In this document: positions 23,299-38,713 of the stretch, piece by piece | Numbering within the stretch: the stretch's first letter is position 1 | Layout of the letters: each line of letters opens with the position of its first letter | Source: a virus | Reading direction: 5' to 3' (one strand) | IMG/VR virus record: IMGVR_UViG_3300031616_000015 | Coordinates: 1-40,705 of that record | DNA length: 40,705 nt | Position numbers and translations under genes: made by a program | Notes under the pieces: model-generated | Seen by the model: only the letters and a program-made list of their open reading frames with translations | What the model was told of the DNA's origin: nothing | The model's database searches: none

Positions 23299-23570
23299 CG
23301 GCGTTCGCGCTTCGGCGACTCACCCGAGAGCATTTCGAGGATCAGCAAGGACACCCCGATGGCGGCATACCCCCACAGGTGGGAATAACCCCACACCGCA
23401 TAGCTGAGGAAACCGAACGCCGTGACCTGCATGACGGTCGTGCGTACCTTCGGCCAGGAAGGCAGCACCGAGGCGAAGAATCGGACGAGCACGAGGAGGA
23501 TCGGTGTTCGTGCTGGCCGCGTACGGCGCGCGGTGCGACCCCCTGCCCACGCTTCCGTAATGCTCGTCAT
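23295..23570 (-). CDS. Membrane protein (91 aa, 2-3 TM segments)
   Basis: Track ORF. Hydrophobic segments are ILLVLVRFFASVL, VTAFGFLSYAVWGY and AAIGVSLLILEML. It has an ATGA overlap with the portal start. Confidence 0.55.
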   Translation of the reverse strand: MTSITEAWAGGRTARRTRPARTPILLVLVRFFASVLPSWPKVRTTVMQVTAFGFLSYAVWGYSHLWGYAAIGVSLLILEMLSGESPKRERR

Positions 23571-26218: not shown

Positions 26219-26253
26219 AGCCTAGTTGACATCCCATCAGGATGTCAACTAGG
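26219..26253 (-). promoter_or_regulatory. Palindromic operator/promoter: CCTAGTTGACATCC-catca-GGATGTCAACTAGG, then TAGGCT (-10) and ATGGGTATG
   Basis: 14-bp perfect inverted arms read directly at 26221-26253. On the - strand, TTGACA (26243-26248) is followed by N18 and then TAGGCT (26219-26224). Confidence 0.55.
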
Positions 26254-27239: not shown

Positions 27240-27273
27240 AGCCTAGTTGACATGCCCGAGCATGTCAACTAGG
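27240..27273 (-). promoter_or_regulatory. Palindromic operator/promoter: CCTAGTTGACATGC-ccga-GCATGTCAACTAGG, with TAGGCT as the -10 box
   Basis: 14-bp perfect inverted arms at 27242-27273. On the - strand, TTGACA (27263-27268) is followed by N17 and then TAGGCT (27240-27245). Confidence 0.55.
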
Positions 27274-27720: not shown

Positions 27721-27753
27721 AGCCTAGTTGACACCCCCGAGGATGTCAACTAG
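27721..27753 (-). promoter_or_regulatory. Imperfect palindromic operator/promoter: CCTAGTTGACACCC-ccga-GGATGTCAACTAG, with TAGGCT as the -10 box
   Basis: Read directly. On the - strand, TTGACA (27744-27749) is followed by N17 and then TAGGCT (27721-27726). Confidence 0.55.
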
Positions 27754-27825: not shown

Positions 27826-27957
27826 TCAGGCGTTGAGCGGACCGTGCTCGCCCGCATAGTCACACGCGAGGCAGACTCGCACGCCGTGATCGGCCAGAGG
27901 GACCAGCCCCCGCGCGCACCACTTGCAGATCTCACGGGCCGCGCGCGCCACGCTCAC
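27826..27957 (-). CDS. Zinc-ribbon micro-protein (43 aa: VSVARAAREICKWCARGLVPLADHGVRVCLACDYAGEHGPLNA). It is below the ORF-track cutoff.
   Basis: Hand translation. The GTG start makes a GTGA overlap with the stop of 27954..28427. It carries two CxxC pairs. Confidence 0.55.
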   Translation of the reverse strand: MSVARAAREICKWCARGLVPLADHGVRVCLACDYAGEHGPLNA

Positions 27958-28427
27958 GCCAGGTCCTCCGGAGCCACGCCCTCGATCGAATACTTCACGG
28001 TCGCGGTGGTTTCGGTCTTCGTGGCCGCATCGAGCCCGAGGCGCGTCGCGAGCGTGTTATCCGCCTTCAGTGCGGTGGCGAGCGCTCGATCCCGAGCGGC
28101 GTAGTCGCGCACGATCGCGCCAGTCTCGGGGTCGTACAGGATGTTGCCGTCCTTGCCCACGGCCACCGGCGCGCCAGCCATCTCGACCATCGCCACGGCC
28201 TGATCCTTGACGTACTTGATCAGCTCGATGGATTCCTGAATCAGCTCAGCACGGTCGATCGGCGGAATGGAATCGCGAACGTCTTTCTCGATCTGAGCAA
28301 CACGCTGTTGCGAGATTCCGTAATGCTCGGCGCACCATGCCTGCGTCTTGCCACGCAGTGAGATCCATCGCCAGATCTCTCCGTTGCGACCTTCAAGCTT
28401 GGTTTCGTCTCCCGGACGCCCAGCCAT
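27954..28427 (-). CDS. HTH DNA-binding protein (157 aa); candidate small terminase subunit
   Basis: Internal ATG 28427 of track ORF 27954..28457. The HTH-like segment is GKTQAWCAEHYGISQQRVAQIEKDV. Its size and position upstream of terL fit a small terminase. There is no other candidate of suitable size. Confidence 0.55.
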   Translation of the reverse strand: MAGRPGDETKLEGRNGEIWRWISLRGKTQAWCAEHYGISQQRVAQIEKDVRDSIPPIDRAELIQESIELIKYVKDQAVAMVEMAGAPVAVGKDGNILYDPETGAIVRDYAARDRALATALKADNTLATRLGLDAATKTETTATVKYSIEGVAPEDLA

Positions 28428-28434
28428 AAGTTGA

Positions 28435-29025
28435 TCATCCGCAACTAGAGTTGACAAGCCACGTTTTCAACGCTTTGAAAGAAAGCGCCGAGAGTGGCAA
28501 TTCTGGACCCCATGTCCATACGCTCGACCACTTCCATTCGAGCTTGGAAGCGGGAGACGAGTAGACGGCGCACGCGCGGTTTCGCGTCATCGCGTGACGG
28601 CCGAAGCGAAGACCGATCGAATGCGTCATTTGGAGCGGCCTCCCTGTCGATGCGTGCGTGTTGTTGCCGCAAGCATACCCCCGGCGCACCTCCCATCCGC
28701 AACCTTCCGCCAGTGCCTGCAACTTGAGCACGGACGCGGGCCACGGGAAGTCGGGCACGACATCCGCACGGGAGCTGATCAGCGGCGCGGGGAACACCTC
28801 GATCTCAACCTCACGCGCAACGTACGTGCCCATCGGGTAGCCGACCACAGGCCTGTACGCGCCAGCCTCGCCGCCGCGTCCGGCTACCTCGAGACACGCA
28901 CCGCACCGTGCCACCCGAGCGCGCTCCGGCGTGCACAGGGCATCGTTCGCACCGCACGAGGTGCACCGTGCCCACACGAGGTGGGATGCGGGCACCTCGC
29001 GCGGCTCTTCAAAGTCAAGCGTCAC
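28435..29025 (-). CDS. Hypothetical protein with an N-terminal Cys4 motif (196 aa; CTSCG...CGAC)
   Basis: Track ORF with a GTG start in an operon of overlapping genes. Confidence 0.55.
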   Translation of the reverse strand: MTLDFEEPREVPASHLVWARCTSCGANDALCTPERARVARCGACLEVAGRGGEAGAYRPVVGYPMGTYVAREVEIEVFPAPLISSRADVVPDFPWPASVLKLQALAEGCGWEVRRGYACGNNTHASTGRPLQMTHSIGLRFGRHAMTRNRACAVYSSPASKLEWKWSSVWTWGPELPLSALSFKALKTWLVNSSCG

Positions 29026-29793: not shown

Positions 29794-29987
29794 TTGACCG
29801 GGAACAGCTTGTCAAGTTCCCGGTCCTTGAGCCGTTCCGCCCGGATCGAGCCGCGCAGCGTCAGTCCGCCGTTCTCCCCGATCAAGCCCGCGTTGAACAG
29901 TTGACGCATTTCTGGCCCGATCGCCCGCGTTGCCGCCCCGACGTGGTACCCGAGCGCGTCCTTGAGCAGTTCATCGTTTGTTCTCAT
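29790..29987 (-). CDS. Small protein (65 aa), leaderless; possible winged-helix-like DNA binder
   Basis: Track ORF. ATG 29987 lies 7 nt after the -10 box of the 29995-30023 promoter. It has a GTGA overlap with rusA. Confidence 0.6.
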   Translation of the reverse strand: MRTNDELLKDALGYHVGAATRAIGPEMRQLFNAGLIGENGGLTLRGSIRAERLKDRELDKLFPVK

Positions 29988-29994
29988 GTCAACT

Positions 29995-30023
29995 ACCCTA
30001 GTCGCTCAGGTCTGGCATGTCAA
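29995..30023 (-). promoter_or_regulatory. Promoter TTGACA-N17-TAGGGT followed by AGTTGAC-ATG (leaderless)
   Basis: The - strand reads tCTAGTTGACAtgccagacctgagcgacTAGGGTagttgacATG. The TAG at 30024-30026 is the stop codon of the upstream gene. Confidence 0.6.
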
Positions 30024-30836
30024 CTAGAACAGGAAGGTTTTGTCCTGCCAGACGTTCAACGCCGACTTCAGTTCAGCGGCGTACGCCGCGTACGCCTCAG
30101 GGTCGTGGATGGCGGACTTGATCGGCTCTCCGCACCTCCACGTACCACCTGGATGGATAACCTGCTTCGTGCACAAATGATTCAATGACGGCTCAAAGTC
30201 GTGTACCCCGCGCCCATGCCCCTCGTATGTCCGTACGAGCACCGTGTAAGCCGCTGAGGCGTCCTGTGCCGCGTTGACGGGCGCGCCCCCGACTCGGGTA
30301 CCCGCCTCGCCCGAAAGCCGCTGTACAGCCGCCTCAAGGGCCGCAACGCGCAACCTCAGGTCTTCCACGTCCGTACGAGATGCGGGCAGGGGCGTGAAGT
30401 TCGCCAGCAGGACCTTCGTGTCCCGTGCGATGTCCTCGACCAGAGCGGCTTCATGAGCGGCCAGGAGAACAGCATTCCGCGCCTGGCCCAGCGTTCCACC
30501 CCGGCGTACGCGCCATGCCCGAACTGTCTTCGCCCACGAGCCACGTTCGCCCGGACGCAGCGTCTCGCCTTCGGCGATCCATTCCACGTACCGGTATGCC
30601 AGTCGTTCGTCTTCGGCCAGGAGGCGCACCGTGGCACGCGACCGGCCGCCCCAATCCATGTCGCTGTGAACCACGCGCACCCGTTCCGCCCATTCGCCCG
30701 CCTGGCGGCATCCCCGGCACGTGGCGTCCGCCAGCCGGTTGGTCCGCATCTCGTGGTAGCCGAGCGGCAGTCCGCACGCGTTGCCCCACAAGCCTCCCGT
30801 TTCCCGTACCAACGCTCCAAGGTGAATCTCGTTCAT
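30024..30836 (-). CDS. Hypothetical protein (270 aa) with an N-terminal Cys motif and a central coiled-coil-like segment
   Basis: Internal ATG 30836 of track ORF 30024..30887, preceded by gagaggcgagag (SD-like). It is the first gene downstream of the iteron/box region. Confidence 0.6.
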   Translation of the reverse strand: MNEIHLGALVRETGGLWGNACGLPLGYHEMRTNRLADATCRGCRQAGEWAERVRVVHSDMDWGGRSRATVRLLAEDERLAYRYVEWIAEGETLRPGERGSWAKTVRAWRVRRGGTLGQARNAVLLAAHEAALVEDIARDTKVLLANFTPLPASRTDVEDLRLRVAALEAAVQRLSGEAGTRVGGAPVNAAQDASAAYTVLVRTYEGHGRGVHDFEPSLNHLCTKQVIHPGGTWRCGEPIKSAIHDPEAYAAYAAELKSALNVWQDKTFLF

Positions 30837-30894
30837 GTCTCTCGCCTCTCGTCTTGAATCGGCCAGGAAGGTCAACCCCCGAGCCACCTACCCG

Positions 30895-30943
30895 CGTCAA
30901 CTACCTACCCATCATGTCAACTAGGAATCTCTCGTGTCAACTA
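30895..30943 (-). repeat. Three direct TAGTTGAC(A/G) boxes phased at exactly 20 bp
   Basis: On the + strand the boxes read cgtcaacta (30895-30903), tgtcaacta (30915-30923) and tgtcaacta (30935-30943). Confidence 0.7.
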
Positions 30944-30983
30944 CTATTTTTCATAGAGATCCTGATCTTGAGGACTGGCAAAA

Positions 30984-31186
30984 GTACGCACGGTACGCAC
31001 GCGCCCCCTCCTAGGGTCGGGGGCGCTGGTACGCACTTACCGTCAGCCGGTATGCACCCCGGTACGCACCGGTACGCACCGCAGGTCAGAGGCGGTACGC
31101 ACTTGGTACGCACGGTACGCACCCCCGGTACGCACCCCGGTACGCACTGCCTTTTTGATCTTGGAGTGCGTACCGCAGTGCGTACC
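30984..31186. repeat. Iteron array: 11 direct copies of (G)GTACGCAC plus 2 inverted copies (GTGCGTACC); candidate replication origin or regulator-binding array
   Basis: Direct copies are at 30984, 30992, 31028, 31049 (GGTATGCAC), 31061, 31071, 31094, 31105, 31114, 31127 and 31139. Inverted copies are at 31166 and 31178. A GC hairpin (31001-31026) lies inside the array. Flanks are AT-rich and both carry TGATCTTG (30963, 31156). Confidence 0.85.
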
Positions 31187-31195
31187 TGCGACTAT

Positions 31196-33445
31196 TCACT
31201 CTTTTTTGGACATCTCGGACTCATGTTCGGCGATGACCAGAGGATCGGACGAAAAGCGGGCACCCCCGACATTGGTGATCAGTTCACGCTTAAACGCCCG
31301 ATCCCATCCCGTATGCCACGTTTGCTTCAACAGCCGCTCAGTCACCCCGCCGTAGAAGCGCTCGATTACCACAGTCCGCGCTTCCGCCTTCGTGAGTCCG
31401 CGACTCTCTCCGTGATCGGACAAAACGCGCACAATCAGATCAGTGACGGAGTCCGAATGCCTCTGCCAGTCCTCGCCACTTCTCCCAGCCGCCGCATCGC
31501 CTTCGGCCACCTTCCACGCATCCGGCTCAAGCACGAGGGACGTCACGTCCTCGCCGTCCTCATCCTGGCCGACCACCACGCGTGTGAAGACGAGCGTCAT
31601 GGGTGCGCGCTCGTCGATGTCCTTCTGTTTCTCCACGAGCAGTTGACCCCGCAGCGTGCCACCCGGAGCCGTCTCGTCCTTGACGACCTTGAGCTCCGTG
31701 TCCTGCGCTCCGTCGATGGCGGAACTACCCCTGGCATCGCCGCCCTTGCGCCCGGTGTGATGCACGGTGAGCACACACGCGCCCGTGGCCTGCCTCAACG
31801 CCTCCACAGCGGCGATGTAGTACCCCATGTCGGTGGCGTTGTTCTCCTCGAGGCCCACCGTCACCCGAGCTTGGGTGTCCATCACGATGAGGCACGGCAG
31901 GGATTGCCCGTCTGGCCCGTTCAGCAGCCTCCTGGCCGCCTCAACGAGCACTGCCCACTTCTTCCCGTCCGCGCTCTGTACGGGCCGTGGGAGCACGTAC
32001 ACGCCGTCCGGCAGGCCACCGTGCGCCTTCTCGTACGCCCGTACCCGCTTGCCCATGCCGCCCGCCCCCTCTGCCGCCACGATGAGCACGCGGGCCTGCG
32101 TAGTCTTCAACCCCTGCCACGGCTTGCCCGCCGCTACGTGCATGGCCATGTCCAGCGCCACGAAACTCTTGCGGGATCCGGGCGCGCCGATCAACCACGC
32201 CGCACTGTCGAGGTTCAGCAGCTCTTTGATCAGCGGTTGCGGCGGTGGGCGCTTGGCCACCTGATCGAGCGAGAGCATTTCGGCCAGTAGGGCGTCGACT
32301 TCATCCCCCGTAGGCACCGAAGACACGCCCGGAATGTCCTGCGTACCGCCCTTGACCTGCGGTGCGTACTCAGTGCGTACCTCTGCGATCCACGGGTCCA
32401 GCGAGGCTCTGCGTCCGTCCAGCACCGCCCTGAACTTCTCCACGGTCCACCTCGAGGCCGGGTGCGACTCGTCGTAAGCGGTCATCGCCAGTTGACGACG
32501 CAACAAGGCCATGGCCTCGTCGACATCCCAGAAGGCGGGCACGAAGTGGGCCAGCGTGACGGCCGCGTTGTTGCACCGATCCTCGATCATCCCGAGCGGC
32601 GCGGCTGCCAGGTCCATCAACGGTCCGCGTACGTGTGCCTGTGCCTGCACGAACGTGAAGCCGCGCGTCTCGACCGCCACCCCCGCCGCCGCCATTCCGG
32701 CCATCGAAGGTGAGGCGAACGGATCATCGGCATCCACGCCACCGCCCTTGACCCTCCTGGCCGCATCATTGCCCGCACCCGCGCGTGCCACCCTTACCAG
32801 CGCCACGATGTGCTCGCCGCTGTCGTCTGAGGATGTGCCGTCCTCTCGCCTGAACTCGGCCAGGAAGCCCGTATCCGGCTCACGCACCCACCGGTAGGGG
32901 TGCAGCTCCCCCATCGTCTCGGGGGCCTTGCTGGGACGCACCGTGGGCGAGATGAACGCGAAGCCGCGTCCCTGCCCGTCCGCCCCGCCCCCTTGCAGGT
33001 CCATGCCCGACAGGAATCCAGCGGATCGATGCTCACCCGTGGGGCTGATCAGTTCGTGCGTCCCGCCCGATGGCGTGCTCTGCGTCCCGAACGATCGGGG
33101 CATCCACCCCCGGTTGTCCAGATCTTCGCGCGAAATGTCCCCGCCGTGGCGGGGGTCGAAGTCCAGCATGTCCGCCCCGCCGGACTCGCGTACCCCGCCG
33201 ACCATCGCGAGGGCGTAGCCCGGTCGCCACCGTTCCAGCCAGGCCGTACGTGACGGTACGGTGCGCTCCCACTGTTTGGGGAGGTAGTACTCCCCCGGTT
33301 GCCACGGATTCGGTGCCGCGCAGAACACCGGTATGCCCGCGTCGATGAGTTCCCCGGCTATCTCCAGCGCCCGCGCCGTCTCCTCGTCCGTCAACGGATT
33401 GATCACAACGGAATTGATCACAACGTCTTGTACTGATTCGCCCAC
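31196..33445 (-). CDS. Bifunctional primase-polymerase (prim-pol) fused to a RecA/RepA-type replicative ATPase (749 aa)
   Basis: The N-terminal segment AGIPVFCAAP...ALAMVGG...DMLDFDPRHGG resembles bifunctional prim-pol domains. The central Walker A (LIGAPGSRKS) and LIVAAEG / VLTVHHTGRKG blocks resemble AAA_25/RepA-like ATPases. Confidence 0.85.
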   Translation of the reverse strand: MGESVQDVVINSVVINPLTDEETARALEIAGELIDAGIPVFCAAPNPWQPGEYYLPKQWERTVPSRTAWLERWRPGYALAMVGGVRESGGADMLDFDPRHGGDISREDLDNRGWMPRSFGTQSTPSGGTHELISPTGEHRSAGFLSGMDLQGGGADGQGRGFAFISPTVRPSKAPETMGELHPYRWVREPDTGFLAEFRREDGTSSDDSGEHIVALVRVARAGAGNDAARRVKGGGVDADDPFASPSMAGMAAAGVAVETRGFTFVQAQAHVRGPLMDLAAAPLGMIEDRCNNAAVTLAHFVPAFWDVDEAMALLRRQLAMTAYDESHPASRWTVEKFRAVLDGRRASLDPWIAEVRTEYAPQVKGGTQDIPGVSSVPTGDEVDALLAEMLSLDQVAKRPPPQPLIKELLNLDSAAWLIGAPGSRKSFVALDMAMHVAAGKPWQGLKTTQARVLIVAAEGAGGMGKRVRAYEKAHGGLPDGVYVLPRPVQSADGKKWAVLVEAARRLLNGPDGQSLPCLIVMDTQARVTVGLEENNATDMGYYIAAVEALRQATGACVLTVHHTGRKGGDARGSSAIDGAQDTELKVVKDETAPGGTLRGQLLVEKQKDIDERAPMTLVFTRVVVGQDEDGEDVTSLVLEPDAWKVAEGDAAAGRSGEDWQRHSDSVTDLIVRVLSDHGESRGLTKAEARTVVIERFYGGVTERLLKQTWHTGWDRAFKRELITNVGGARFSSDPLVIAEHESEMSKKE

Positions 33446-33484
33446 GTGATACCGTCCTATTGAGTTTTCGTCCAGTGAGACTCA

Positions 33485-33514
33485 GAACGGCGGACCTTCA
33501 GGGGTCCGCCGTTC
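33485..33514 (+). terminator. Hairpin with a 12-bp perfect stem (GAACGGCGGACC-ttcagg-GGTCCGCCGTTC), followed by ctcttttctc on the + strand
   Basis: Read directly in the 124-nt gap between two - strand genes. The T-tract is on the + strand, which is antisense to the flanking genes. Confidence 0.45.
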
Positions 33515-34231: not shown

Positions 34232-34312
34232 AATGTCACCTTTCCGTACGATTCATGCCCGATGCTGCGGCACGGTACCGCCGGACGACACCCACCGTAC
34301 CCTGCGGACTAG

Positions 34313-34341
34313 TTGACAGGCAACCCCCCACCGACTACGGT
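34313..34341 (+). promoter_or_regulatory. Promoter TTGACA-N17-TACGGT followed by AGTTGAC-ATG (leaderless)
   Basis: The sequence reads aCTAGTTGACAggcaaccccccaccgacTACGGTagttgacATG, with the ATG at 34349. Confidence 0.6.
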
Positions 34342-34348
34342 AGTTGAC

Positions 34349-35685: not shown

Positions 35686-37554
35686 ATGGAGATTACGTTG
35701 GACCCGATGGCCATCCTGCGCCCGTATCAACGGGACGCGATCGATCACCTGTGGAAGTCGTGGGACGCGGGCATGACGCGCGTCCCGATGGTGCTCGCCA
35801 CGGGCCTCGGTAAAACGAAGATCTTCACGCGTGTCGTGCACAAGTGGCTCACCGAGAACGGAAGCAAGCGTGTGCTCGTCATCGCGCACACGGATGAGCT
35901 GATCTCGCAGGCAGCCGCAGAAATGCGTGCCGCCAACTCCGGGATCGCGGTCGGCATCGTCAAGGCTGGACTGAACGAGACGCACTGCCGGATCATCATC
36001 TCGTCTCGTCAGACTCTCGCTTCCGAAAAGCGTCGTGCACAGTTGAAGCGTGTCGGTCTGATCATCATCGATGAGGCGCATCATGCCGTTCGCACGAACA
36101 CGTACGGCAAGATCCTCGAGCACTTCGGCGCGTTCCCCTCGCCGTGCTCCTCATGCTCTGAGGGATTCAGCGGCGATCAGGCGGTACCGGGAGGGCAGTG
36201 CTGGGATTGTCAGGGGACCGGGCTCTACAACGGCGGAGAGACTGCCGTCAAGGTTCTCGGATTGACCGCGACTCTTTCGCGTGGCGACAAGGCGAAGCTC
36301 TCCACGGTGTGGGAGGACAAGCCCGTCCCGACCTTCCGCAAGGACATCCTGTTTGGAATCCGCAACGGCTTCCTGCTCGATGTGCGTGGCGAGCGTGTCA
36401 TCGTTCCCGACCTGAACATGAAGAACGTCAAAACGCAGGGTGGTGATTTTCAGGATGCGAGCATCGCGGAAGAGTTGGAACGCACTTTCGCACCGCAGAT
36501 TGTTGCGGAAAAGTACGCGACCGTGGCAAGGAAATCAGGAAGCAATGAGTTACGTCAGGGGATTGCGTTCTGGCCGTTGGTGGATACTGCCTACCATGGC
36601 GCGCAAGCTTTCAATGATGCGGGCATCTCGTCTGCGGTCATCCACGGTGGTCTACCGAAAGAAGAGCGCAAGCTCATCTTGAAGCGGTTTCAGGCTGGCG
36701 AGATAACCGTTGTCCACAATTGCATGGTGCTGACGGAAGGCTTCGACGCGCCGTGGGCAGACGTGGTGGTGATCGGTCGCCCGACACGCAACGGTGGCCT
36801 GTATCAGCAAATGGTCGGGCGCGTGCTGCGCCCTGATCTGACCGTTGAGGCGAGCCTGCGCGAGAAGGCACTCATCCTCGATGTCACGGGTGCAGGCGCG
36901 GACAACGATCTACGCTGCCTGATCGACCTCGCGCCGGAGCGTCCGCTGAGGAAGCATGACGACGACGATGAGGACTTCTCGCTACTCGATCTCGAGCTAG
37001 AGCTAGAAGAGTCCATCGCCAGCGGCGCGGCACCGTGGCTCGTGGAGGAGATCTACGAAGGGCCTGCTGACACCAAGGCGTTCGATCCTCTTCACCGAAC
37101 TTTGGCGTGGAATCAGACTCCGGACGGCACGTACTTCATGAGCGCCGGGGGCAGCCATTACATCTTCCTCGGTGAGTCCGCGTACGGCGATCCTGGCACG
37201 TACGACGTGGTGTGGTGCACGAAGGTGGATTGGAACACCCCGCCGCAGTCGGCGGGCTCGACCGACTACCGCGCCCTGCCGCTGGAAGAGGCGCTGCTGT
37301 GGGCGGAGGAGGAAGCGATCTCGCGTGGCGGGCACGGCGCGAAGACGCTGTCATCGCGTAAGAGTAAGTGGCGTGACGAGCCTGCCACTGAAGGGCTGAA
37401 GAGCAAGGCTCGCGCGAACGGCATCCGCAACAACAAGGCGACCGGTCGTGATCTGGACACGATGACAAAGGGTGAGCTGGGCGAATTGATCGACGCGAAG
37501 ATTGCAGCCAAGAGTATCGATCCGCTCGTACGCAGACTGAAGGGAACGCGGTAA
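35686..37554 (+). CDS. Superfamily 2 DEAD/DEAH-box DNA helicase (622 aa)
   Basis: Motif I is LATGLGKT, motif II is IIIDEAHH, motif III is LGLTATLSRGD and motif VI is QQMVGRVLR. Confidence 0.85.
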   Translation: MEITLDPMAILRPYQRDAIDHLWKSWDAGMTRVPMVLATGLGKTKIFTRVVHKWLTENGSKRVLVIAHTDELISQAAAEMRAANSGIAVGIVKAGLNETHCRIIISSRQTLASEKRRAQLKRVGLIIIDEAHHAVRTNTYGKILEHFGAFPSPCSSCSEGFSGDQAVPGGQCWDCQGTGLYNGGETAVKVLGLTATLSRGDKAKLSTVWEDKPVPTFRKDILFGIRNGFLLDVRGERVIVPDLNMKNVKTQGGDFQDASIAEELERTFAPQIVAEKYATVARKSGSNELRQGIAFWPLVDTAYHGAQAFNDAGISSAVIHGGLPKEERKLILKRFQAGEITVVHNCMVLTEGFDAPWADVVVIGRPTRNGGLYQQMVGRVLRPDLTVEASLREKALILDVTGAGADNDLRCLIDLAPERPLRKHDDDDEDFSLLDLELELEESIASGAAPWLVEEIYEGPADTKAFDPLHRTLAWNQTPDGTYFMSAGGSHYIFLGESAYGDPGTYDVVWCTKVDWNTPPQSAGSTDYRALPLEEALLWAEEEAISRGGHGAKTLSSRKSKWRDEPATEGLKSKARANGIRNNKATGRDLDTMTKGELGELIDAKIAAKSIDPLVRRLKGTR

Positions 37555-37721
37555 TGGAGTGGCCTCACGCAGCAAGATTTTTGAAAGATGGTGTCTGGCA
37601 ATTGGCGCGCGGGTGTCAGGGGTTTCTCACTGACAAGCATCCGGACGCGCCACGAGGCGTGTCGTTCTGCACATCGTGCAAGCGCACCGTGGTTAGGGGA
37701 ATGGGGAAGTGGTGGGAGTAG
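37554..37721 (+). CDS. Possible small protein (55 aa, MEWPHAARFLKDGVWQLARGCQGF...FCTSCKR...). It is below the ORF-track cutoff.
   Basis: Hand translation. Its ATG overlaps the helicase TAA stop (TAATG). Codon bias is only moderate. Confidence 0.35.
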   Translation: MEWPHAARFLKDGVWQLARGCQGFLTDKHPDAPRGVSFCTSCKRTVVRGMGKWWE

Positions 37722-38713
37722 ATCAGGCCGAAGACCCGTTCGCATCGGCCAGTGACATCAAGCCCGCGCCGAAGGAATTCGGGAAGGTGTACAACGGGCG
37801 GTACCACATGCCGTTGCTGTCCGGCGAGTGCGGCCCGAAGAGCGTCAAGGATGCCGACTACGTATCGGGCGGCATACAGCGCATGACGAACCTCGTCGGC
37901 GCGGCAGAGGACACGCGTGCGCTGAACGTGTGGGAACAGGCGATGGCGCTGGTTGGGCTCGCGCTGTCACCTGAGCTGTACGAAGAGCTGACACTGATGG
38001 TGCATCAGGCACGCAGTGACGGCGTCAACTTCGAACTACTGCGCGAGTATCCGAGGCTGCGGGAAGCGCTCGCTGGCACGCCTCAGGACTCGGGTGAGAG
38101 CATCGTCGGACGGGCGAAGCACGCGGCCAAGGCGAACGCCGCCGCGCAGCGTGGCACGAACAGGCACACAGCGTGGGAACATCGCGGCGAGACGGGCGAG
38201 TTGATCGGCACGCCCGCCATGCAGGAGCACGTCGTGGATGTCGAGCGCGTGTTGGCGAAGGCAGGCCTTGAACGCGTCCCCGGCCTCAGTGAGCGCATCG
38301 TGCGCAACACGGAGATAGGTGCCGTTGGCAAGTTCGATGACATCCTTCGGGAGATCTCCTCTGGCCGCTTCCTGATGGCGGACTTGAAGACAAAGGCTCG
38401 CGAGTTCTTCACGTTCGTCACGGTGGATGCTCAGCTAGCCGGGTACGCGTATTCGGATTGGATGCTGGCCACACGCCCTGCGCGAGACGGCGGGAACGTC
38501 GCGAGCTACGTCCCAGGTCCGCGCTATCACGTGGACCTGACGGAAGGTGTCATCCTGCACGCGCCGTCCGACGGCTCTCCGGCGCACCTCGACCGGGCAG
38601 ACCTCGTGCAGGGGTGGAGGGTGGCGCAGTTGGCGAGGCAGATCGTTGACGTCCGAGCGAACGGCAAGAGCGCGGCGCGCCACGTGGCGAGCATATGGGG
38701 AGTGCAGTCATGA
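37709..38713 (+). CDS. PD-(D/E)xK-type exonuclease (Cas4/RecB-like, 334 aa)
   Basis: The GKFDDIL ... FLMADLKTK arrangement fits a D...(D/E)xK nuclease core. The gene lies next to the helicase gene. Confidence 0.6.
   Translation: MVGVDQAEDPFASASDIKPAPKEFGKVYNGRYHMPLLSGECGPKSVKDADYVSGGIQRMTNLVGAAEDTRALNVWEQAMALVGLALSPELYEELTLMVHQARSDGVNFELLREYPRLREALAGTPQDSGESIVGRAKHAAKANAAAQRGTNRHTAWEHRGETGELIGTPAMQEHVVDVERVLAKAGLERVPGLSERIVRNTEIGAVGKFDDILREISSGRFLMADLKTKAREFFTFVTVDAQLAGYAYSDWMLATRPARDGGNVASYVPGPRYHVDLTEGVILHAPSDGSPAHLDRADLVQGWRVAQLARQIVDVRANGKSAARHVASIWGVQS

Follow-up and report, generated by a model that had tools for sequence, protein, structure and literature searches.

A repeat array directly 3' of a phage primase-helicase gene is probably a replication origin read by the enzyme's winged-helix tail

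The 40,705-nt stretch analyzed here in full (the window; IMG/VR virus record IMGVR_UViG_3300031616_000015, positions 1 to 40,705) is a siphovirus-type genome of ~40.7 kb with a G+C content of 61.5%. An array of 13 short repeats (iterons) at 30983-31186 begins 10 nt past the stop codon of a gene encoding a 749-residue primase-helicase, and comparative sequence analysis and structure prediction make it quite probable that this array is the phage replication origin and is read by the protein encoded immediately upstream. An earlier note on this DNA had proposed a candidate origin here, a reading that the relatives of the gene support: by comparison and structure prediction, the array keeps its layout, its repeats are lineage-specific, and they change together with the C-terminal winged-helix tail of the protein.

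The 8-mer GTACGCAC occurs exactly 15 times in the window against a chance level of 1.57 +/- 1.38 copies, and none of 100 dinucleotide shuffles reaches 15. Twelve of these occurrences and one variant copy lie within the 203 bp of the array, ten on the plus strand (30984, 30993, 31029, 31062, 31072, 31095, 31106, 31115, 31128, and 31140) and two on the minus strand (31166 and 31178). Read as a 9-mer on the plus strand, nine direct copies are exact GGTACGCAC and two are variants (AGTACGCAC at 30983-30991 and GGTATGCAC at 31049-31057), and the inverted copies at 31166 and 31178 are both exact GTGCGTACC. Exact counts and shuffles thus confirm the 13 copies (11 direct, 2 inverted) and the positions reported for them in the earlier note. 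Elsewhere in the window GTACGCAC is restricted to an intragenic copy of part of the array (32362 and 32373) and to a lone minus-strand site at 23440-23447, distant from the array, for which chance suffices (1.6 expected per window). Scatter at promoters or within operons, as in a dispersed operator or stoperator pattern, was not seen for GTACGCAC across the window; the motif TAGTTGAC, by contrast, is dispersed. The features of the locus are as follows (window coordinates, strand, description).

31196..33445, minus strand: gene for the 749-aa three-part putative initiator (AAA_25, E=2.7e-31, Pfam)
31202..31447, minus strand: region coding for the predicted winged-helix domain (residues 667-748), the proposed iteron reader, with its recognition helix at about residues 707-719
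31166..31186, plus strand: paired iterons (GTGCGTACC on the plus strand) adjoining the stop codon and opposed to the main block
31148..31165, no strand assigned: AT-rich 18-nt spacer TGCCTTTTTGATCTTGGA, which includes CAAGATCA and separates the opposed iterons; candidate melting site
31094..31147, minus strand: direct iteron block A, five GTGCGTACC read on the minus strand, spaced 9-13 nt
31081..31091, minus strand: non-iteron core CTCTGACCTGC at the array centre, conserved family-wide, the sole exact match in the window
31028..31079, minus strand: direct iteron block B, four copies including the GGTATGCAC variant (31049-31057)
31001..31026, no strand assigned: GC hairpin or palindrome, GCGCCCCC - GACCCTAGGA - GGGGGCGC as read on the minus strand
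30983..31000, minus strand: two distal iterons immediately past the hairpin
30936..30982, no strand assigned: distal AT-rich region with a second CAAGATCA at 30963-30970, the GC minimum of the locus; second candidate unwinding element
30896..30943, minus strand: three TAGTTGAC repeats and the next gene's promoter (-35 TTGACA at 30940-30935, -10 CATGAT at 30916-30911, by promoter scan)
32339..32380, plus strand: intragenic inverted mini-copy of the array centre, coding for linker residues 356-369

The array lies, as had been noted, between the stop of the 749-aa gene and the start codon of the next gene (ATG 30836). In the direction of the gene, the stop codon is followed by two reversed iterons, the 18-nt spacer TCCAAGATCAAAAAGGCA, five direct iterons, CGCCTCTGACCTGCG, four direct iterons, the GC hairpin, two further iterons, ~47 nt of AT-rich sequence with CAAGATCA, and the three TAGTTGAC repeats with a promoter-like site ahead of ATG 30836. 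The hairpin described earlier is present, with arms at 31001-31008 and 31019-31026 and CCTAGG at 31010-31015, and the 8-mer TGATCTTG does bracket the array (30963 and 31156). The AT-rich flanks are likewise real, the G+C content in 20-nt windows being 25-30% at 30936-30965 and 40% at 31146-31165 against the genome mean. The spacer itself (31148-31165, 39% G+C) is flanked by opposed iterons at 31127-31147 and 31166-31186 and sits near one end of the array, not at its centre. The single-strand fold score of the array (z = -5.6) was set aside and not used as evidence because the iteron is itself a near-palindrome (GTRCGYAC), which inflates it.

A protein search yielded 323 relatives of the primase-helicase, many on 38-47-kb contigs. 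Loci were compared from three sources (3 by exact protein, 75 from metagenomes, and 6 from genomes, namely two Micromonospora, one Actinoplanes, Virgisporangium, Segniliparus, and a Kribbellaceae metagenome-assembled genome), leaving ~70 non-redundant loci after duplicate removal. Among the genome loci, L080 is from Micromonospora sp. URMC 103, L081 from M. rubida NEAU-HG-1, and L082 from Actinoplanes sp. HUAS TT8. Scanning of 600 nt past the stop codon for at least 6 exact copies of the top 8-mer gave 56 arrays, most of which begin within ~25 nt of the stop; the helicases of the array-bearing relatives, which include integrated prophages of Micromonospora, Actinoplanes, Virgisporangium, and Segniliparus, are 35-88% identical. 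The array 8-mer varies by locus (GTGCGTAC, CTCCGTAC, CTCCGCGC, TCAGGACA, GGTCTGGG, and others, with GGGCTGGA, CACTCCGG, GACTTCGG, TGACTCAA, and GTGACGAA as further locus-specific array words), and the layout is shared: one or two reversed copies are followed by ~8-10 direct copies to about +200, and the far end often carries reversed copies. Arrays have a median of 12 copies (interquartile range 9-13), and the spacing of same-orientation neighbors peaks at 9-12, 21-25, and 31-36 nt, that is, in helical phase (~11 bp). A head-to-head junction at median +20/+43 from the stop is found in 42 of the 56 arrays, and in many relatives its spacer is AT-rich with GATC. A fixed layout with a diverging word is the pattern expected where binding sites co-evolve with the protein that binds them. 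Across the family, the G+C content is 55-59% over the array, rises at the hairpin, and dips to 53-54% at +230 to +270. Six metagenome contigs (L003, L010, L014, L026, L031, and L051) stop inside the array or no more than ~150 nt past the stop codon; assembly probably fails at the repeats, and arrays are therefore likely under-represented in short contigs.

Three pairs of loci point to the part of the protein that goes with the repeats. Between the window and loci L005 and L003, nucleotide identity is ~87-97% through most of the gene, with flanks at about 88%, and drops to 33-68% from 31534 to ~30954; this block consists of the last ~110 codons and the array, and identity recovers at the TAGTTGAC repeats. 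Across it the repeat changes from GTGCGTACC to CTCCGTACC, which share 7 of 9 positions. The converse is seen with L002 (JGI Ga0500644_0000628), in which the block from -326 to +274 relative to the stop is 98-100% identical to the window and the flanks are mostly 72-93% identical. Loci L039 and L046, with helicases 46% identical, have tails 83-94% identical, share the repeat CACTCCGG, and show a breakpoint at -322. The breakpoint coincides with the end of the helicase domain in all three pairs, which were counted as independent recombinants. Among locus pairs matched for helicase identity (45-70%), same-motif and different-motif pairs differ in winged-helix identity (0.47 vs 0.25) and recognition-helix identity (0.43 vs 0.19) with helicase identities of 0.59 and 0.53, respectively; these pairs are not independent of one another, and the statistics and p-values are indicative only.

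The tail (residues 620-749) is predicted with high confidence to fold as a winged helix: its AlphaFold model has a predicted local distance difference test (pLDDT) score of 88.7 and an H-H-H-beta-beta topology, and the top Foldseek matches are winged-helix DNA binders (Fur, MarR, forkhead, histone H1, and PadR; probability up to 1.0, E at least 0.03). In a viral structure library, the matches of the tail are the C-termini of other phage primases and helicases. The recognition-helix families follow the repeat families, T/S-W-T/I-D-S/A-W being found with GACTTC-type repeats, RN-S/G-G-x-K/R-x-AW with GGTCTGGG and GGGCTGG repeats, and TS-x-x-SAVRDL with ACTCA-type repeats. The three recombinant pairs and these families both indicate, at the level of sequence, that the C-terminal domain and the iterons change together; tail and array are, by these comparisons, inherited together as one cassette starting near 31534, and we infer that the winged-helix tail of the primase-helicase is what reads the repeats. 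In the full-length model, the tail follows a RepA/AAA_25 helicase domain (residues ~380-640) and a second linker. The PHROG matches of the protein are to DNA polymerase/primase and helicase families, and Prim-Pol was matched at E <= 0.001 in 12 of 30 relatives. With a 30-relative profile, the nearest solved sequence is RSF1010 RepA (1G8Y; E=0.004 over residues 377-517), a distant relationship, and the chain looks like the three functions of RSF1010 RepC, RepA, and RepB' joined in one.

Two other candidate binders were considered. The earlier note had named both the primase-helicase and the product of the next gene (30024..30836, minus strand); the former is retained, through its tail, and the latter, a 270-aa protein matching no known family, was dropped as it does not track repeat type, being 70% identical in L002 and 29% in L004, both of which have the repeat of the window, and 64% in L005, whose repeat is different. 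No homolog of it was found downstream in the loci beyond L002, L004, and L005. The small genes upstream were also rejected, that region being mostly ~88-91% identical to L003, whose repeats differ.

Further parts of the locus are conserved. A core of the form (G/C)CTCTGACCTGC(A/G) lies mid-array family-wide, at a median of +107 from the stop. Its orientation never changes, and it has locus-specific iterons on both sides; TGACCTG is found downstream of the stop in 41 of 70 loci and in 3-4 in coding controls. Since the core is unchanged when the tail changes, we suppose that it is used by a conserved part of the protein or by a host factor. The CAGGTCA found at about -820 to -700 inside many helicase genes was rejected as an origin copy, as it encodes the motif P-V-Q-V. 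A GC hairpin, located by perfect-stem search, is present at about +150 to +220 in 57 of 70 loci, compared with 17 of 62 coding controls, and often abuts an iteron directly. Its stems vary (GCGCCCCC/GGGGGCGC in the window, CTGGCTAC/GTAGCCAG in L004, and CCGTGTGTG/CACACACGG in L005) and its loops are alike (GACCCTAGGA, CTCTCTTA, and TACGTAGT). It was rejected as a canonical intrinsic terminator, a T-run of at least 4 within 45 nt being found in only 5 of the 57 loci, at 14-17 nt; it may be a tail-less actinobacterial terminator. The word CAAGATC, which lies in both AT-rich stretches, was counted 38 times, across 29 of 70 loci, within 350 nt past the stop, versus 1 and 12 times in two coding controls of equal length.

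Part of the array recurs inside the gene. Positions 32340-32369 are 93% complementary to 31072-31101, forming a 30-nt inverted repeat 1238 nt apart, and the elements run in the order iteron, iteron, CAGGTCAAGGG (CGCAGGTCAAGGGCG), degenerate iteron; the GTACGCAC copies at 32362 and 32373 belong to this element and are not due to chance. The residues it encodes lie in a linker predicted to be disordered (pLDDT <50 at residues 359-375), so that a DNA element would here constrain the sequence of a protein linker. L005 and L003 carry the equivalent intragenic element with their own repeat, GTACGGAG, and L008, L029, L041, L043, L046, and L057 likewise have intragenic clusters of whichever motif makes up their own array.

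The mechanism we propose, on the model of SaPI (Staphylococcus aureus pathogenicity island) Rep, is as follows. The winged helix would bind the 9-bp repeats GTGCGTACC, 13 sites at about one helical turn corresponding to roughly two hexamers. The opposed sites flanking the spacer at 31148-31165, the distal AT-rich stretch at 30936-30982, or both would open the duplex; of these, the distal flank had already been proposed as an AT-rich unwinding element and is kept as a candidate, and the 18-nt spacer is to be added as a likely part of the melting site. The RepA-type helicase would then load itself, with no separate loader, and the Prim-Pol domain would start DNA synthesis. Possible places for this are the core CTCTGACCTGC and the GC hairpin, which by analogy to ssiA and ssiB, used by RepB' in RSF1010, are candidate loading or priming sites. 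Elongation would pass to the host polymerase, a step proposed because no DNA polymerase family was matched among the open reading frames (ORFs) scanned. The intragenic copy could, again by analogy, play the part of P4 crr or provide a further loading site for the opposite direction. Binding, melting, loading, and priming, like the roles given to core, hairpin, and intragenic copy, are thus put forward as a model.

A fuller version of this model is possible but doubtful. It would have an all-in-one initiator, with RSF1010-like RepC, RepA, and RepB' fused, acting on an origin of two layers: a swappable tail-iteron cassette of ~600 bp, and an invariant core CTCTGACCTGC with a hairpin of conserved loop and varying stems, the latter layer being read by the conserved primase or helicase domains as the place of loading or priming. 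Some members would have a second, inverted origin core in the linker-coding sequence, which could serve bidirectional loading or handcuffing.

Several observations weigh against the array being an origin read by the tail. No clear array is seen in about a fifth of loci (e.g. L012, L015, L021, L035, L054, and L056), and the array centre is GC-rich, as opposed to the AT-rich centre of SaPI origins. The Prim-Pol match of the window protein reaches 21.7 bits against a Pfam cutoff of 22.8. Over all pairs, motif similarity and tail identity correlate weakly once helicase identity is controlled (partial rank r ~0.13), which is why the recombinants and the matched-divergence comparison were relied on; the cassette argument accordingly rests on recombinants and motif-sharing pairs, which are non-independent samples. 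GC skew in the window tracks gene orientation and is uninformative on an origin at 31 kb. Lastly, L002 has, at about -1200 from the stop, four copies of GTACGGAG, the L005-type repeat, together with a window-type tail and array. Because this internal cluster mismatches the tail and array, L002 is a recombinant, the product of a recent cassette exchange, and the internal site would be dispensable or the two specificities would overlap.

The repeats could be bound by the tail and yet serve regulation in place of initiation, as an autoregulatory operator, a roadblock on read-through into the next operon, or a means of initiator titration. The array does lie between the end of the gene and the promoter of the next, a strong GC hairpin stands where a terminator would be expected, and plasmid iterons serve initiation and control alike. 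We nevertheless consider a purely regulatory array unlikely: loading is the only evident use that a helicase-primase would have for a domain binding duplex DNA at specific sites, no T-tract follows the hairpin in 52 of 57 loci, the array is kept while the downstream genes differ among loci, and ~12 sites in helical phase, with opposed copies meeting head to head across an AT-rich spacer, fit the geometry of an origin. Regulation and initiation are not mutually exclusive, and regulation is a possible additional role. That the repeats are instead sites for another protein, as a parS-like partition centromere, a packaging site, or sites of the 270-aa protein, seems rather improbable. Partition was checked because repeats that follow repA are parS in some mycobacteriophages, the direct repeats directly 3' of repA in Miko and Rachaly being the precedent (PMC7157519), and the lack of a known family for the 270-aa product also leaves room for such a role. 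Among the ORFs scanned, however, no ParA, ParB, or integrase family was matched, the terminase gene is ~5 kb off, the 270-aa protein neither tracks repeat type nor has downstream homologs beyond the closest relatives, and the unit that is co-inherited consists of the helicase tail and the array. A block of short repeats of ~200 bp with a conserved central core also resembles the architecture of attP, in which the iterons would be arm-type integrase sites around the crossover core CTCTGACCTGC. An integrated attP would be split, and the arrays are intact, with the core flanked on both sides, in the chromosomal loci L080-L084 (L080 on a 2.1-Mb contig and L082 in a complete 11.6-Mb chromosome); the array is moreover always 3' of the helicase gene, in a window with no integrase family found. 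The attP reading is on these grounds effectively refuted and hardly credible.

The reading as an origin bound by the tail can be set beside systems of known function. SaPI Rep uses its C-terminal winged helix to bind 6-12 iterons that lie just 3' of rep and are opposed around an AT-rich stretch, with no loader, an origin arrangement shown experimentally (PMC9371898, PMC7581432). The present locus shares with SaPI Rep/PriRep of S. aureus and the SCCmec Cch2 site the position of the iterons directly 3' of the initiator-helicase gene, and with SaPI the predicted specificity in a C-terminal winged helix, the multiple iterons (6-12 in SaPI) opposed around an AT-rich stretch, the proposed lack of a loader, and, in SaPI5, the primase fused to the helicase (PMC9371898, PMC7581432). 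It differs in its helicase, which is of the AAA_25/RepA type whereas SaPI Reps are of the DUF927 or Primase_Cterm/D5_N type (PMC7581432), in the length of its iterons (9 bp vs 5-6 bp), in having a conserved GC-rich array core with the AT-rich parts at the edges, in its hairpin and intragenic inverted copy, and in belonging to a tailed phage, not a satellite. Neither DUF927 nor Primase_Cterm/D5_N was found in the 749-aa protein, for which Pfam gives AAA_25 and a weak Prim-Pol match only. With an AAA_25 helicase and RSF1010 RepA as nearest relative, the resemblance to SaPI Rep is therefore one of functional analogy and not of family membership. By analogy, the locus belongs to the functional class of iteron-based origins used by self-loading initiator helicases (SaPI Rep, SCCmec Cch2, P4 alpha, and pRN1 ORF904), with no membership by homology in those families because its helicase is of the RepA/AAA_25 type and its primase of the archaeo-eukaryotic primase (AEP) type.

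Iterons are 20 bp in RSF1010, whereas here they are 9 bp with ~13 copies. The likeness to RSF1010/IncQ lies in the RepA-type hexameric helicase (1G8Y, the nearest solved relative), the archaeo-eukaryotic-type primase in both, and an oriV of iterons, GC-rich and AT-rich segments, and priming hairpins, of which ssiA and ssiB serve RepB' priming (PMC4234260, PMC8567376). RSF1010 has separate RepC, RepA, and RepB' proteins and paired ssi hairpins; the window has one polypeptide from one ORF and one 26-nt hairpin, as against two 40-nt ssi sites. In phage P4, crr is a distant second cis site with the same repeats, and the helicase of alpha belongs to superfamily 3 (SF3). The intragenic copy at 32339-32380 is comparable to crr, with the difference that it is a shortened, inverted copy located within the gene and present in only about a fifth of relatives. 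P4 alpha unites primase and helicase in one protein, whose C-terminal winged helix binds the repeats of the origin and whose primase is of the TOPRIM type (PMC4234260). The TOPRIM and SF3 combination was not found in the 749-aa protein, which has Prim-Pol (AEP) and AAA_25 instead. Proteins of the pRN1 ORF904/Bordetella phage BIP-1 type consist of Prim-Pol, helicase, and a C-terminal winged helix, with the origin just 3' of the gene and a stem-loop (PMC4234260), a combination that the present locus would match. They differ in having an SF3 helicase and a ~100-nt stem-loop origin lacking iterons, whereas here iterons dominate and the hairpin is 26 nt. In lambda, ori consists of initiator-binding repeats within the linker-coding part of gene O, to which the intragenic copy in a disordered linker is comparable; the main array here differs in lying outside the gene, and no lambda P-like loader is implied because the initiator is itself helicase and primase.

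The terminase, portal, protease, capsid, and tape-measure genes of the window are all on the minus strand, as are both genes flanking the array. A divergent promoter region at 34232-34348 has the replication and structural genes, which run leftward, on one side and a rightward group on the other, with a DEAD/ResIII helicase (35686..37554) and an exonuclease (37709..38713) among its members. The cumulative GC skew has its turning point at ~35 kb, near the gene-strand switch; because the two roughly coincide, skew is unusable for placing the origin. The motif TAGTTGAC occurs in 24 exact copies window-wide, in promoter-like contexts (e.g. 24643/24674, 29988/30019, 30896/30916/30936, 34310/34341, 35646/35678, and 39385), and in 51 copies at up to 1 mismatch versus 16 expected. 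Tandem pairs 31-32 nt apart fit TTGACA-N17-TA(G/C)nGT followed by AGTTGAC and then directly by ATG, which suggests leaderless gene starts at 29987, 24642, 34349, and 35686. The three copies next to the array have a 20-nt spacing, off the tandem-pair pattern, and since the motif is genome-wide this triplet is regarded as a neighbor of the origin and not part of it. Three near-identical intergenic units of ~50 nt (26223-26251, 27244-27271, and 27725-27752) each contain TTCATACCCATAGCC and, after it, a palindrome in which a short spacer separates two TAGTTGACA(T) arms, that is, the promoter motif as an inverted repeat. These units might function as bidirectional terminators or as operators for a phage regulator; a candidate binder is a 167-aa protein (27954..28457) with weak helix-turn-helix, sigma70 region 4, and KorA matches. 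Upstream of the start of the gene following the array, GGGGTTGACCYTCCTGGCCG at 30858-30883 is kept in L002, L004, L005, L020, and L040, and might belong to a 5' leader or be another protein site. CCTGGCCG was rejected as a shared element, being mostly a coding word for Leu-Ala, with GGGGTTGACCYTCCTGGCCG common to the closest relatives only; outside these, CTGGCCG is merely a frequent coding word.

A near-identity search of 30000-33500 against cultured phages gave no match, and a protein-level search against them gave distant relatives only (coverage at most 56%, ~28-41% identity). Three of these that were inspected, Gordonia phage Puppers gp36, Mycobacterium phage Thonko gp57, and Rhodococcus phage Shagrat gp98, have no intergenic space 3' of the gene, and therefore these three phages offer no cultured model. 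An Rfam scan of 30500-31600 at a permissive threshold gave no match, and a scan of viral contigs gave just one weak locus.

No cultured phage in the collection searched belongs to this clade, and the clade itself, the tail-iteron cassette, the invariant core, the hairpin of varying stem, and the intragenic inverted copy appear to be new. To our knowledge, the replication origins of actinobacteriophages are largely unmapped. The locus offers a testable candidate origin and reader domain for a group of phages and prophages of ~40 kb from Micromonosporaceae-like hosts, a natural set of winged helices paired with their 9-mers for the study of how DNA-recognition specificity evolves, and possible parts for orthogonal replicons in actinomycete engineering. 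The conserved core and hairpin may mark the place where an AEP primase-helicase loads or primes. If the two-layer scheme is true, cassette exchange would let related phages switch replicon specificity and so avoid, for instance, cross-interference during co-infection or with resident prophages.

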